A DNA stretch of 64,000 nt from an uncultured bacterium (GCA_963840885.1 CAWJAN010000001.1:115051-179050); one strand, 5' to 3'. Positions 12,395 to 59,640 are shown, counted from the first letter of the stretch. Numbers and translations: made by a program. Notes: a model not told the origin generated them from the sequence alone.

Positions 12395-12735
12395 TCATGA
12401 ACCTTTATATCTGTAAGCCGAATTCTGTTTGCCGGTTGCCCGGCAAGATAGCCATCTATCTAGGCCAAAAATTGCTTTTTAGCTCGAGCGGCGCTTCCGC
12501 ATAAAGCGGACACGGCCTTGCACAAAGGTAAGGATTTAGCCGTTGCACTTTCACCTTTCGGTGAAATTATTCCCGAAGGAACCCTAGCCTTTCGGCATCG
12601 GCGTCACTGTTCGCACCTCGTGGATTGCTCCAGACGGGCGTTACCCGCTACCCTGCTCCGAGCCTTGCGGCCCGGTTGTGTTCGGACTTTCCTCCCCGGG
12701 AAAATCCCGGAGCAGCTATCCGATACAGAGGCGCT
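12395..12735 (-). ncRNA. rnpB: RNase P RNA (bacterial type)
   Basis: The minus strand contains the universally conserved P4 5' strand GGAGGAAAGTCCG (plus-strand cggactttcctcc at 12682-12694). It also contains the 3' P4 strand ACAGAATTCGGCTTACAG (plus-strand ctgtaagccgaattctgtt at 12411-12429). The region between is GC-rich, stem-rich and ORF-poor. The ends are approximate. Confidence 0.8.
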
Positions 12736-55365: not shown

Positions 55366-55440
55366 GGCCCTATCGTCTAACGGTTAGGACACGGCCTTTT
55401 CAAGGCTGTAATCGGGGTTCGATTCCCCGTAGGGTCACCA
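55366..55440 (+). tRNA. tRNA-Glu(UUC), CCA encoded
   Basis: GGCCCTA..GTCTAACGGTTAGGAC-A-CGGCC-TTTTCAA-GGCTG..CGGGG-TTCGATT-CCCCG-TAGGGTC-A-CCA. Confidence 0.85.
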
Positions 55441-55473: not shown

Positions 55474-56079
55474 ATGGATTTCAAAGTAAAATGTGAAAAT
55501 TGTGGAAAGATAACTCCACACACCCAAAGAGGTGAAGCTGTACAAAATGATGAGATAGATTGGGGGGAAGATGAACCAGCCCAAGAAATACATTGGAACA
55601 ATCTTTTATTACAATGCGACCTATGTGAAAGTGTTTCTTTGCACTATTTTTCTCCAGAAGTACGCGAGGAGTTAACTCAACAGTTTCCCATTATAAAAAA
55701 TTTAAATGGTGTACCTGCTAATGTGGCGAAATCTTATTCGGAAGCAAAAAAGGTAAAAAATATCTCGTCTTTAGCTTTTTCAACGTTAATAAGAAGAGCT
55801 TTAGAATCTGTATGTATAGACCAAAAGGCTGTAGGGAAAGATTTAAATAAAAAACTAGAAGATCTGGGTAAAAAAGGAATTATTCCTCAAACTCTATCAA
55901 AAATGTCTCATGCGATAAGATATTTTGGAAATATCGGCGCTCATGCTTCAGATATTGAAATTAGTGTTGAAGAAGTTCAAACCATGGATGATTTTTTTGT
56001 AGCAGTGCTAGAGTACGTATATATAGCTCCTCAGAAATTAAAAAGAGTAGAAGAACTTATGAAAAAGAAGAATAAATAG
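55474..56079 (+). CDS. zinc-ribbon plus DUF4145-like domain protein (defence-island-associated family)
   Basis: N-terminal CENCGK...CDLC zinc ribbon. The C-terminal helical domain has the DUF4145-type motif IRYFGNIGAHASD. It starts 34 nt after tRNA-Glu. Confidence 0.5.
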   Translation: MDFKVKCENCGKITPHTQRGEAVQNDEIDWGEDEPAQEIHWNNLLLQCDLCESVSLHYFSPEVREELTQQFPIIKNLNGVPANVAKSYSEAKKVKNISSLAFSTLIRRALESVCIDQKAVGKDLNKKLEDLGKKGIIPQTLSKMSHAIRYFGNIGAHASDIEISVEEVQTMDDFFVAVLEYVYIAPQKLKRVEELMKKKNK

Positions 56080-56106: not shown

Positions 56107-56871
56107 ATGAGTAACAAAAATGAACAGATTACAGAAGATCAACATTATGTTCCCCAATTTTATCTAAGGCAGTGGCTGGATGAAACCGGCGGTTTCTATC
56201 CTGTAAAGATTGAAGAAAAACAACCTCCAAAATTAAAAATCTTTTCTGATAAATCAGATCAGAGTAGGTTTTGTTACGAAAACTTCTTCTATGCCCAACA
56301 CACAGGAGTTGAAGATGAAATAAGTCAAATTATTGAAAAGGAATTTGCAAAGATTGAAACAATATTTTCTCAAGAATTACCAGTTCTTGAGAAGAAGATT
56401 TTGAATTATGAGCATATTAACAATGGTGTTGTAGGAGATACCGGATAATCTGGATAGATCCTCTTGATACAGACCTTTCTCTTTCCTATACCTCCGTATT
56501 GCCTCACCTATATGGTTTTCATTGTTCATAGGATGAATTGTAGTTAGTTAATAAAAAAATGGTAAGACTGTGAAATGTATCCATTTGGACATGTTTTGTG
56601 GATAACTTTATTAGCTTTAAGAACAAATACTATGATTAGTCTTGAACAATTGAGAGAAGTTGAGCCTGCATTAAAAGATATGTTTGATAAAGAGGTAGAG
56701 CGTATTCGGGATCTCCTCTATGCCCAAGCCAAGATGGCCCTTGAATGCTTCCTGGAAGAGAAAACTGGTACTAAACAAGAGGTGCATGTTCCTGATTTTA
56801 GTTTTGACTCAAGAGAACGGGATGCACTCAAACGCTGTCAGGAGATTATGGATCTGAAAAAGAAAAAATAG
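56107..56871 (+). pseudogene. disrupted DUF4238-like gene (N-terminal fragment 56107-56448, possible C-terminal fragment 56575-56871)
   Basis: The N-terminal fragment starts with the DUF4238 hallmark HYVPQFYLRQW, but the ORF ends after 113 aa. A second 98-aa ORF follows in another frame after a 126-nt gap. Together they would make a protein of about 250 aa. Confidence 0.35.
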
Positions 56872-56889
56872 TGCTGTTGAGCGGATTTT

Positions 56890-57470
56890 GACTTTATTTT
56901 CCTATCCTATACAATTGGATTAACACCACAATTTTTTTCCTCTGCATTTGGGCATAATGCAAACACTGTAGATTTAGGTGTTCGGGAAAAGTGGTGCTGG
57001 ACCTAGCCCAAGTGGAGCCAACCATAAAAAAGCTAGCCGACTAAGCGTGTAGTCTAGACTCTAAGCTTATAGGCGAAATAAAATAGGAGTCACTTACTGG
57101 TGCCAATGCAGTTAAAAGGGGCTAGCCTCGTTAGCGATTTGGGAGACGATTTCCGGCTTTCTCTGAGGCGAAAAAAACAGGAAACAGTATAGTCCGTTGC
57201 TTTAGCCTTTGTGCTCGTACAAACAAAGGTAGCGGGGTTTTAACCTTTGTGTACCCGACTAAACGACAAAGGGAAGGGATTTTCTCTCTCTTGTATCCAG
57301 CGAACCAAACAAGTGAGAAAAAAGTTTATCTCTTGTACTGAACAAGGATAGCCAAAGAAGCGGCTCACGGCTTTAGGGCGAAACAGACAGTGGCTTCGGT
57401 TATTGCGTATAAGCTGAGCGCAATACATGATGAGCAAAACCCAGTTCTCGAGAACTGGGTTTATTTATTC
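56890..57470 (+). ncRNA. candidate large structured ncRNA (about 580 nt) of unknown class, ending in an intrinsic terminator
   Basis: No ORF of 60 aa or more on either strand across about 850 bp. Local GC is higher than the flanking island. Repeated stem motifs are present (cctttgt..acaaagg twice, gctagcc box twice). It ends in the perfect terminator aaacccagttc-tcga-gaactgggttt-ATTTATT at 57437-57470. Confidence 0.35.
57436..57470 (+). terminator. rho-independent terminator closing the candidate ncRNA
   Basis: 11-bp perfect stem, tcga tetraloop, T-rich tail. Confidence 0.8.
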
Positions 57471-57891
57471 CCCGAAACAGATATCTACTTTTTCTTTCTG
57501 CATGAAATTCTGGAAACTACGGAGATGTATTATAATGGCGTTCCAATTCTGGATAACGAGGGTCACCAACGTTGATATTGTGTGTAAAAATTCAATAATA
57601 CCTTGCAACTAAGCCACCCTTAAGGGGTTCCAAATCCAATTTTTCAAAAAGAGATTATTTAATTCTCTTAGTGATTAAAGGATACCCCTTCGGGGATTGG
57701 AACCGATAGCTAACTAAGGAGGATTGGAACTACTATTTTTTGATGTTAAACATCAGACCTTCTTTTTCAGAAAAAGGTTGCAAGATCGCAGTATTCAACT
57801 CCCTGTTCTTTACATAACGGAGGTATTTTTGGCTTGTTTTGATTGCAATCTGGTATCTCATATGTAACAAGAATACATTTGTGGATATATG

Positions 57892-59046
57892 CTACCGCAA
57901 CCGCAAATGTGTCGGCGCTATAAACTTTTGGATCTTTATACTCAGAAATTTGAGGGTATTTATAGACCATGTTCTCTGAGTTTCAAGATAATCTCTATAA
58001 AGGCCAATTAAATTTAATCTGAAAATATCATCGTTTTCTGGTTTAAATCTTGAAATTATGGATTCAAAAACATCATAAAGAAAAATACCTGTTTTCTCAC
58101 GTAATTTTTTGCTTTTATCCTTCGTTCTCACACCCCAACTGTAATTCCAACCAATACTAGACAAAGCTTTTAAAAGTAAATTACGATTCTCTTGTTCAAA
58201 TTCACTCTCAAAAAACCTTTTTATATTCTCAAAAAATGCAAAAATAAGATCATCATTATAATCAAGTTTTTTCTCATAACCCTCCTGGTTGTGAGCCATG
58301 TTCGCTCTGTGAATAAGTTCAAAATAATGACCGGCAAGTTTAATAAATGAAATTTTTCCATCAATACCAAGACCATTAAAACTGATTTCCTCAAATAGAA
58401 AATGAGAATGGTCAATTTCAGGATGCTTAACAAAAAGTTCGTCTAGATAAAATGACGAATTTGGATATATATGTTCATCTAGATAACCATTAAGGAATGA
58501 TTTCTGATTGTTCAAAGACAAGACAAAAAGATTGTTTGTGAATTGATTGATATGACGTAGTTTTTCCAAGGGAGTAGTTTTTATTTTTTTGAAGCCAAAT
58601 TCTAAAGTTTTTTCAAAAAGAAAAGCATGCTCAGAAAATAATGTTAATAATAAATTACTTCTGAAATAAGTAATAAAAACGGTCCTGGCATCATTATTTT
58701 CCAAAGAAAACTCTAAAAGAGAATCGTAAAAATAAACTATGTCGCCAAGATATTTCAGTACATCTTCCCCGTTTTTTTGTGTAAGTAATTTATTCAAATC
58801 TATAATAAAAAGTTTGATGTTGTACTTATTAAATTTTTTGAATGGTATAAATACAACAGAAGCATAAATAGTTATAGAACCTAACATGAAAATTCCACCC
58901 GTTATTTGGAGAAGAAATGGCTGAAAAATTTGAGTAAATTCAGCTAATAGAGTTGCTAGGACACTTGCTATACAAAAATAAATTGCAATAGAAACTGATA
59001 TTTTTCTAAGTTTAAATCGTAAACCAAGTCGCGTATCAAGCGACAA
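57892..59046 (-). CDS. AT-rich membrane protein (two N-terminal TM helices plus cytoplasmic domain), unknown; likely horizontally acquired
   Basis: 384-aa ORF with markedly lower GC than the rest of the window. N-terminal TM pair. No recognisable catalytic motif. A 67-aa ORF at 57767-57970 overlaps its 3' end in another frame. Confidence 0.5.
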   Translation of the reverse strand: MSLDTRLGLRFKLRKISVSIAIYFCIASVLATLLAEFTQIFQPFLLQITGGIFMLGSITIYASVVFIPFKKFNKYNIKLFIIDLNKLLTQKNGEDVLKYLGDIVYFYDSLLEFSLENNDARTVFITYFRSNLLLTLFSEHAFLFEKTLEFGFKKIKTTPLEKLRHINQFTNNLFVLSLNNQKSFLNGYLDEHIYPNSSFYLDELFVKHPEIDHSHFLFEEISFNGLGIDGKISFIKLAGHYFELIHRANMAHNQEGYEKKLDYNDDLIFAFFENIKRFFESEFEQENRNLLLKALSSIGWNYSWGVRTKDKSKKLREKTGIFLYDVFESIISRFKPENDDIFRLNLIGLYRDYLETQRTWSINTLKFLSIKIQKFIAPTHLRLR

Positions 59047-59099
59047 ACCGATAAGGGAAACTAAAATGGAGATTGCAGTTATAGCGACACCTAAATTAA

Positions 59100-59640
59100 A
59101 AGAAGAGACCGTTTCTTGTATTATTTTAATGCCCTAATTCAAAATCTTTTAATAATTCAAGATATTTGGCTTTTATATGTCGCTCTACCCAATTATCTGA
59201 AAGCTGACTTATTTCGCCGTTACTGCTGACAATTGAACTGCATGGCGCAAAATAAGAATCCCGAGTTGGTGTTGCGATAGAATAACCATGAAGGATCCGC
59301 ATGTTTTCATGAGTCTGTTCTAGACAATTTCCTTTATTTCCTTCGGATGCAAACTTGATGCTATATTTTACCTCTACAGATAGAAAACGTTCAACTTTCC
59401 ATCAGTTTTCTTTATCAATAAGAATGAAGTCGGGGGCATTTCTGAATATTGATTTAACGACTTTTTTAACTTCTACCGAAGTTTTGATATTGGGCTAACT
59501 CAGGAAGTGTGTATTCATAAGCAAAACGAAGTATGGTAAATTTCCCAACATCTCTGAACATAAGTGCGAAGATTAGTTCAGCGACTTTCCCTTTGATAAG
59601 GTCATGCGAAAATTTTTCAGTAGATTCCATTTATTTAGTA
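59100..59640 (-). pseudogene. frameshifted PD-(D/E)xK-type nuclease-like gene
   Basis: The minus strand reads MESTEKFSHDLIKGKVAELIFALMFRDVGKFTILRFAYEYTLPELAQ.., then a stop, and then in other frames ..PDFILIDKEN.. and WKVERFLSVEVKYSIKFASEGNKGN.... The D..E.K spacing (PDFILID...VEVKY) fits a restriction-endonuclease-like core. At least two frame breaks are present. Confidence 0.4.

Follow-up and report, generated by a model that had tools for sequence, protein, structure and literature searches.

The DNA analysed here (the window) is a stretch of 64,000 nucleotides from an uncultured bacterium, the genome of which is probably that of a member of the Patescibacteria. It carries an island that begins at a tRNA-Glu gene, and inside this island lies a segment for which a large structured non-coding RNA had been proposed (the original prediction). 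The gene directly to the left of the segment encodes a 98-aa protein with only two relatives in 5.8 billion proteins; the loci of these relatives, designated L001, L002 and L003, are related to the island and were used for comparison. The segment, hereafter the cassette, and its surroundings are arranged as follows.

tRNA-Glu (55366-55440) to ~60470: island, upstream of TsaD
56575-56871, + strand: gene for the 98-aa protein, left flank, outside the cassette; 79% identity in L001 and 60% in L003, with a stop codon that abuts the insertion
56872-57478, + strand: whole cassette, missing from the syntenic loci L001, L002 and L003
57465-57608, - strand: small convergent ORF, right flank, outside the cassette; its core LVTLVIQNWNAIIIHLRSFQNFMQKEK is common to L001 and L003

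The tRNA genes that had been noted in the neighbourhood are present, tRNA-Ser and tRNA-Glu lying 1.4 kb upstream of the cassette. Among PADLOC models, the DUF4145 protein encoded at 55474-56079 (+ strand) corresponds to PD-T7-4, a single-gene defence model (E 7e-14), and it also matches PHROG 1305. At 56107-56530, a DUF4238 ORF is cut to 113 of ~324 aa, and the neighbouring HTH gene is also cut. The Logan contig ERR12036782 (3187 bp), the only other contig found for the strain, encodes identical DUF4145 and 98-aa proteins together with a DUF4238 protein of 324 aa, and its 225-aa gene and 72-aa HTH gene are intact; therefore, a deletion of ~1.9 kb has occurred in the window. On the other side of the cassette, what is left of a DUF4411 (PIN-like) gene is its C-terminal part (57758-57898, - strand; Pfam E 4.5e-06 over positions 109-156 of a 159-position profile). 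This remnant directly adjoins an ORF of 384 aa (57892-59109, - strand), which covers residues ~2-390 of the 535-537-aa homologs P0005 and P0007. This ORF is probably a truncated gene, because the last ~145 residues of the homologs are missing. The family of the 384-aa protein, to which no Pfam, PADLOC or clear PHROG entry corresponds, is found in recombinase-bearing elements of the loci L004 and L006. Positions 8210-8261 of L006, at the contig end, are 96% identical to window 55387-55438, the 3' half of tRNA-Glu; a 563-aa serine recombinase adjoins this half, and a homolog of the 384-aa protein is encoded in the same element, which suggests that tRNA-Glu is the attachment site of this island family. 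In the island of the window, no recombinase is left. The setting is a degenerating integrative or defence island, so that both new cargo and junk are plausible in it.

The small - strand ORF is 47 aa long here and 63 aa long in L001, where it overlaps the homolog of the 98-aa gene by 26 nt. The core LVTLVI(Q/R)(N/D)WNAII(I/L)HLR is found in the window, L001 and L003, and most of the substitutions that separate the window from L001 in this candidate ORF are non-synonymous. The block at 57482-57730, which has 80% identity with L001 10247-10471 and is partly conserved with L003, contains a promoter-like TTGAAA...TATAAT at about 57510-57534 and four 8-nt boxes, GTTCCAAT (57541 and 57637) and its complement ATTGGAAC (57696 and 57723). 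The promoter part of the block has a second copy at L001 11300-11365, and the 200 nt at 57600-57799 (+ strand) have the lowest MFE z-score of the neighbourhood (-3.35). This block could serve the adjacent HTH regulator as a set of operator sites, or it could be a small RNA.

A discrete insertion between two convergent genes

The order of genes in L001 follows that of the window (FtsZ, oxidoreductase, NUDIX, ABC transporter, tRNAs, island, then TsaD), and the two align on both sides of the cassette. Window 56501-56865 corresponds to L001 9870-10234 with 86% identity, and window 57482-57704 corresponds to L001 10247-10471 with 80% identity; the gap between the two aligned blocks is 12 nt in L001 versus 616 nt in the window. 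In L001, L002 and L003, the stop codon of the 98-aa gene is joined almost directly to the counterpart of window 57482 onward, and in L003, which is more distant than L001, the stop codon runs straight into the downstream block. The cassette is a discrete insertion of ~605 nt relative to the three related loci. The alignment breakpoints against L001 place its borders at window 56872-57478 (607 nt), by which the previously proposed interval, 56890-57470, is extended at both ends. Most simply, the cassette was gained in the lineage of the window.

The point of insertion falls exactly between the 98-aa gene and the small - strand ORF, and the C-terminal tail of the latter has been replaced by sequence of the insert. 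Since the core of the small ORF is common to L001 and L003, the insertion lies between two convergent genes, and the hairpin near its right edge can terminate both. There is no target-site duplication at the junctions, where the flanks TAG (left) and TATCTAC (right) have no sequence in common, and the window lacks ~6 nt of the empty site, represented by ATCCCT in L001. The left end of the cassette reads TGCTGTTGAG. As read from the sequence, the two ends resemble each other weakly, CTGTTGAGCGGATT agreeing with the reverse complement CTGTTTCGGGGAAT in 10/14 positions. No second copy of the cassette occurs within the 64-kb window.

Edges, modules and predicted folding of the cassette

The features inside the cassette, from left to right, are listed below.

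56888-56915, + strand: sigma-70-like promoter candidate TTGACT-16-TACAAT, a 10/12 match to the consensus, 17 nt inside the left edge
56924-56996, + strand: predicted 5' domain in which a closing helix CACCAC/GUGGUG surrounds two hairpins; MFE and centroid folds agree
57034-57078, + strand: module M1, TAGCC, hairpin GACTA/TAGTC with a loop that begins AGCG, GGCGAAA; from motif scan and reading of the sequence
57123-57173, + strand: module M2, TAGCC, hairpin TCGT/ACGA with a loop that begins TAGCG, GGCTT, GGCGAAA; from motif scan and reading of the sequence
57206-57347, + strand: array of four hairpins with a period of 38-44 nt, between M2 and M3; from sequence and predicted fold
57206-57229, + strand: hairpin H1, stem CCUUUGU/ACAAAGG
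57244-57272, + strand: hairpin H2, stem CCUUUGU/ACAAAGG
57285-57318, + strand: hairpin H3, core stem CUUGU/ACAAG
57331-57347, + strand: hairpin H4, core stem CUUGU/ACAAG
57349-57383, + strand: module M3, TAGCC-AAAGA-AGCG...GGCTT-TAG-GGCGAAA; from motif scan
57401-57425, + strand: predicted hairpin UAUUGCG/CGCAAUA, read from the sequence and outside the MFE and centroid folds
57437-57470, both directions: bidirectional intrinsic terminator with an 11-bp perfect stem, a 4-nt loop and, on its two sides, an A-tract (before) and a T-rich tract (after)

The promoter candidate belongs to the top-scoring class in 4.5 kb and would place the start of transcription near 56922. Across the window, matches of at least 10/12 have a density of 0.23 per kb per strand, giving ~0.012 expected in any given 50 nt, and promoter-like sites overall are no more frequent than in shuffles. 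A 10/12 promoter-like site also lies directly upstream of the RNase P RNA of the same genome. This RNase P RNA, of class A (12398-12731, - strand, 116.8 bits), has large deletions relative to the consensus, with several internal stretches of the model unaligned, which fits a reduced-genome lineage; the site upstream of it reads TTTGCA-18-TATAAT. At the opposite edge of the cassette, AAACCCAGTTC-TCGA-GAACTGGGTTT (57437-57462) forms 11 perfect pairs followed by ATTTATT, and 16 nt separate the end of the stem from the right edge. The perfect intrinsic terminator that had been noted at 57437-57470 is thus borne out, with 11/11 pairs and a T-rich tract after them; it is also positioned 3' of the stop codon of the convergent - strand ORF (57467-57465). 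The promoter-like site and the terminator, both recognized as consensus matches, occupy opposite edges of the cassette in the same orientation and predict its transcription.

The base composition of the insert (GC 0.437) differs from that of the rest of the island (0.338), which points to an origin unlike that of its flanks. The compositional shift claimed earlier therefore stands against the island (0.44 vs 0.34), but not against the window, the mean of which (0.429) the insert simply equals; the tRNAs and the RNase P RNA of the same genome, at 0.53-0.54, are much richer in GC.

The two strands of the entire 64 kb together contain three copies of the exact motif TAGCC-N5-AGCG, and all three (57034, 57123 and 57349) are on the + strand of the cassette, each followed within 35 nt by GGCGAAA. 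The gctagcc boxes of the original prediction are found here as GCTAGCCGACTAAGCG at 57032 and GCTAGCCTCGTTAGCG at 57121. The stems of M1 and M2 differ (GACTA/TAGTC and TCGT/ACGA), both being self-complementary and placed at the same position after TAGCC; the pairing in M3 is ambiguous and may be AAAG/CTTT or AGCC/GGCT. The two cctttgt...acaaagg hairpins reported previously are likewise real, with identical 7-bp stems at 57206-57229 and 57244-57272, and they form the first half of the array of four. The fifth pair is U-A in H1 and H2 and C-G in H3 and H4, which amounts to one compensatory change, and the loops of the four hairpins are unrelated to one another. The four units have a mean column identity of 63%, and the copies have diverged, because TRF detects no tandem repeat in the insert. 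Short direct and inverted repeats show a modest excess over dinucleotide shuffles (P 0.01-0.04), and internal repeats in a general local self-alignment of the insert are not significant; the repeat motifs were chosen after inspection of the sequence, and their statistics are indicative only. The interior of the cassette is non-randomly modular, comprising three TAGCC-N5-AGCG...GGCGAAA modules and four tandem hairpins.

The folding energy of the + strand is not better than chance (MFE z-score -1.4 to -1.7 vs shuffled sequence), and that of the - strand is somewhat better (-2.8). Windows of 200 nt inside the body range from -0.75 to +0.96, and the RNase P control from the same 64 kb reaches -3.9. 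The many GC-rich helices and ornate structure that had been described are no more than expected by chance on this scale, and in these predicted energies, support for an unusually stable fold is absent.

Coding potential, known RNA families and relatives

TAA, TAG and TGA are each present in all six frames of the insert, by which a hidden gene with an alternative genetic code is ruled out. Pfam comparison of the six-frame translation gave no match inside the insert and recovered only the DUF4411 remnant outside it. Pseudo-translations were intended to catch spurious ORFs called on homologous DNA; the one from frame +2 has no relatives among 5.8 billion proteins, and a 74-aa reverse-strand stretch has none among 1.84 billion representatives, its sole match, P0011, being a repetitive artefact. 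A pseudogene was rejected on the empty six-frame Pfam result in the insert together with the lack of relatives of the pseudo-translations in these collections. The statement that no ORF of 60 aa or more lies here needs qualification, as there are three mechanical ORFs of 61-65 aa (57240-57437 on the - strand, 57390-57575 and 57427-57612 on the + strand), but none of them is supported, and none of the ORFs of the region is present in a collection of 15 billion proteins. One shorter ORF deserves mention:

57100-57192, + strand: 30-aa ORF VPMQLKGASLVSDLGDDFRLSLRRKKQETV with a GTG start and a Shine-Dalgarno-like AGGAG 10 nt upstream

As the only ORF of at least 15 aa in the insert with a Shine-Dalgarno-like motif, it is the best example for the view that the cassette encodes a small protein. 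It begins with GTG, has no homologs, is absent from the 15-billion-protein collection and accounts for just 90 of the 607 nt, and we regard a small protein as the purpose of the cassette as very improbable.

The size of the cassette (~0.55 kb), the tRNA genes 1.4 kb off and the mobile island setting could also suggest a diverged member of a known family, be it GOLLD, ROOL, OLE, HEARO/IscB omega RNA, raiA, tmRNA or a group I or II intron. Short resemblances point the same way: presumably, GACUAAGCGUGUAG recalls E. coli tmRNA, GACUA/UAGUC and UAUAGUCC recall the R/S elements of group I introns, and UAGUCCGUU recalls the nexus of Cas9 tracrRNA. Against this, Rfam 15 gave no match in the segment at gathering thresholds over the 64 kb, and at E<=10 with permissive filters, on 1.5 kb or 607 nt, it gave terminator-like noise only. 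The earlier comparison with GOLLD, ROOL, OLE, HEARO and raiA consequently fails, none of them matching even at E<=10, and the tmRNA, group I and group II intron models of Rfam are equally without a match at that threshold. No IscB-type (HNH/RuvC) gene, as expected beside a HEARO or omega RNA, lies near the cassette, and the neighbouring ORFs (98-aa, small convergent, DUF4411 remnant and 384-aa membrane-anchored) have no match to a nuclease domain; exons, RT and TnpB are absent as well. ARAGORN finds no tmRNA in the cassette at default settings or with -ps; with -ps80 it makes one permuted-tmRNA call there, among 16 in the 64 kb, which is noise. A tmRNA, which was considered on account of a likeness to GACUAAGCAUGUAG, is rejected accordingly, the call appearing only at the 80% threshold. 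A group II intron is rejected for want of an RF00029 domain V/VI match and for a 5' end of TGCTGTTGAG versus the required GUGYG. A group I intron is rejected too, as the cassette has no RF00028 match at E<=10, no exons and no consistent P3/P7 pairing and lies between genes, not inside one; group I introns of Patescibacteria are normally detected by RF00028 (PMC13011429). Membership in a known family is largely refuted and retains only the slightest probability.

Relatives of the cassette were sought in several collections. Blastn of the insert against phage and plasmid collections returned nothing. A two-module motif pattern, which demanded 25 exact bases, returned nothing in IMG/VR and, in JGI metagenomes, four chance matches, of which three fell within coding sequence. 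IMG/VR was likewise without a match to two plain 20-mers and to twelve codon-degenerate 24-nt seeds in two reading frames; the seeds also had no match in 185,579 GTDB species representatives (the source genome is not among them). The cassette is also absent from the loci around homologs of the 384-aa protein and from those of the relatives of the 98-aa protein. All these searches need close similarity or exact seeds and may miss diverged relatives. As no homolog was found, neither covariation nor selection is in evidence for the cassette, and the conserved structured RNA class that had been envisaged gains no support, no homologs with covariation having emerged within the searches made. The cassette is in no described RNA family and is without detectable relatives.

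Interpretation and comparison with known systems

Of the original proposal of a large non-coding RNA, the notion of a self-contained non-coding unit gains support, but the named families and the ornate fold do not, and the GC content is not above the genome mean. The reading that we tentatively prefer, at somewhat less than an even chance, is that the cassette is an orphan, moron-like, lineage-specific, self-contained non-coding transcription unit. It is favoured because the indel has sharp breakpoints, a promoter-like site and a terminator stand at its edges, no coding signal is found and the modules are strand-specific. The layout would be that of a promoter, an ORF-free body of ~545 nt and a bidirectional terminator, and the unit was presumably gained at a site flanked by two small convergent genes, in a decaying defence or integrative island by tRNA-Glu. 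An RNA of its own would be transcribed from ~56922 to ~57470, and a single partner, most likely a protein, may bind to it at several of the repeated hairpin modules. A role of this RNA as a multivalent scaffold or sponge, in contrast to a single globular and ornate fold, is a doubtful further step. Counted against a non-coding RNA cassette are the lack of the cassette in the closest syntenic relatives, the unremarkable + strand MFE and self-alignment, a GC content equal to the genome mean and far below that of known structured RNAs, and the many truncated genes of the island.

The main rival, which we consider somewhat less likely than the preferred reading, holds that the cassette is a functionless remnant of decayed or rearranged mobile-element DNA; nothing in it would work except the hairpin, as terminator of both convergent genes, and the promoter match and the repeats would be due to chance or be relics of old duplications. 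The truncated genes of the island (DUF4238 with 113 of ~324 aa, HTH, the DUF4411 remnant and the 384-aa ORF against 535-537 aa) agree with such decay, and so do the lack of homologs in the searches made, an MFE no better than that of shuffles, the non-significant local self-alignment and the overall frequency of promoter-like sites, which shuffles reproduce. A remnant of this kind does not readily explain why no residual coding similarity is left in any frame or why both breakpoints fall exactly outside a promoter/terminator pair of the same orientation, and three exact strand-specific modules with four regularly spaced hairpins are hard to obtain by chance.

Two further accounts treat the cassette as a DNA element. 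A non-autonomous mobile element, MITE-like or derived from IS200/IS605, could have landed between the two genes, in line with the clean insertion relative to three loci, the weak terminal inverted match (CTGTTGAGCGGATT/CTGTTTCGGGGAAT, 10/14) and the strong subterminal hairpin at one end. Such an origin is nevertheless improbable: the left end has no matching hairpin, the junctions show no target-site duplication and ~6 nt of the empty site are missing, the 64-kb window holds no second copy, GTDB representatives and IMG/VR hold no matches, no transposase, TnpB or IscB gene is nearby and Rfam gives no match to IS605-associated or HEARO RNAs. Still less credit is due to a cis-acting DNA site of the integrated element (a replication or transfer origin, a single-strand origin or a partition site) with the repeats as protein-binding sites or ssDNA hairpins. 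The absence of supported ORFs, the clustering of direct repeats and a hairpin period of ~40 bp would suit it, as would an island family that integrates at tRNA-Glu via a serine recombinase; but the cassette is not AT-rich, the spacing of the hairpin arms (5 to 15 nt) is unsuited to a dimer on duplex DNA, the island has no rep, relaxase or par gene, and related islands that still carry recombinases are without the cassette.

If the preferred reading of a self-contained non-coding unit is extended, the cassette might be the first representative of a novel class of modular non-coding RNA of ~0.55 kb, carried as cargo by integrative defence islands of Patescibacteria, with modules that bind several copies of a partner and with relatives too diverged or too poorly sampled for exact-seed searches; we consider this extension unlikely. 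Should the transcript prove real and functional, the cassette would represent a cargo gene that yields only RNA, carried by a defence or mobile island of a bacterium with an ultra-small genome, and an example of a moron with an RNA payload. In a lineage with such genomes each retained base calls for explanation, and to our knowledge, few non-coding RNAs beyond the housekeeping set have been described in such lineages. At present, the value of the cassette is that of a well-delimited single orphan candidate with exact ends, strand and modules.

Several known systems offer points of comparison. The cassette shares with ROOL and GOLLD RNAs the size class of 0.5-0.8 kb, the non-coding nature, the mobile-element context and the nearby tRNA genes (PMC5737381, PMC12286853). 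It differs from them in matching neither covariance model at any threshold, in having no homologs and no covariation, in folding no better than shuffled sequence and in the distance to the nearest tRNA gene, which is 1.4 kb off and not adjacent. The defence-island setting, the promoter, the array of hairpins at ~40 nt and the terminator are reminiscent of ToxI, the RNA of type III toxin-antitoxin systems. Unlike in ToxI, the repeats are strongly diverged (none detected by TRF; 63% mean column identity), and unlike in a type III system, no ToxN/AbiQ-like or other + strand gene follows the terminator, the next gene being convergent. A type III antitoxin RNA was rejected on these two grounds, near-identical tandem repeats and a downstream + strand toxin gene both being absent. 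CsrB and RsmZ are multi-hairpin RNAs that sequester a protein. By analogy, the cassette may be likened to them as the source of a transcript predicted to stand alone, bounded by a promoter-like site and a terminator and bearing a series of similar short hairpins. Its motifs are different, namely TAGCC...AGCG...GGCGAAA and YUUGU/ACAAR stems, and the partner protein is hypothetical; a CsrB-like GGA sponge was rejected, GGA being not enriched in the cassette (11 by eye, ~12 estimated to be expected).

The morons of phages and prophages, as in the lambdoid phages, are independent units of promoter, gene and terminator that lie inserted between two genes found side by side in related elements. Classical morons encode proteins, whereas the cargo of the cassette is free of supported ORFs; its host is a decayed integrative or defence island, not a demonstrable prophage, and its expression is predicted. 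In the other respects the cassette is like them: it is present or absent between the same two genes, which are adjacent in L001, L002 and L003, it has a promoter-like site and a predicted terminator at its edges, and its GC content is unlike that of its flanks (0.437 vs 0.338).
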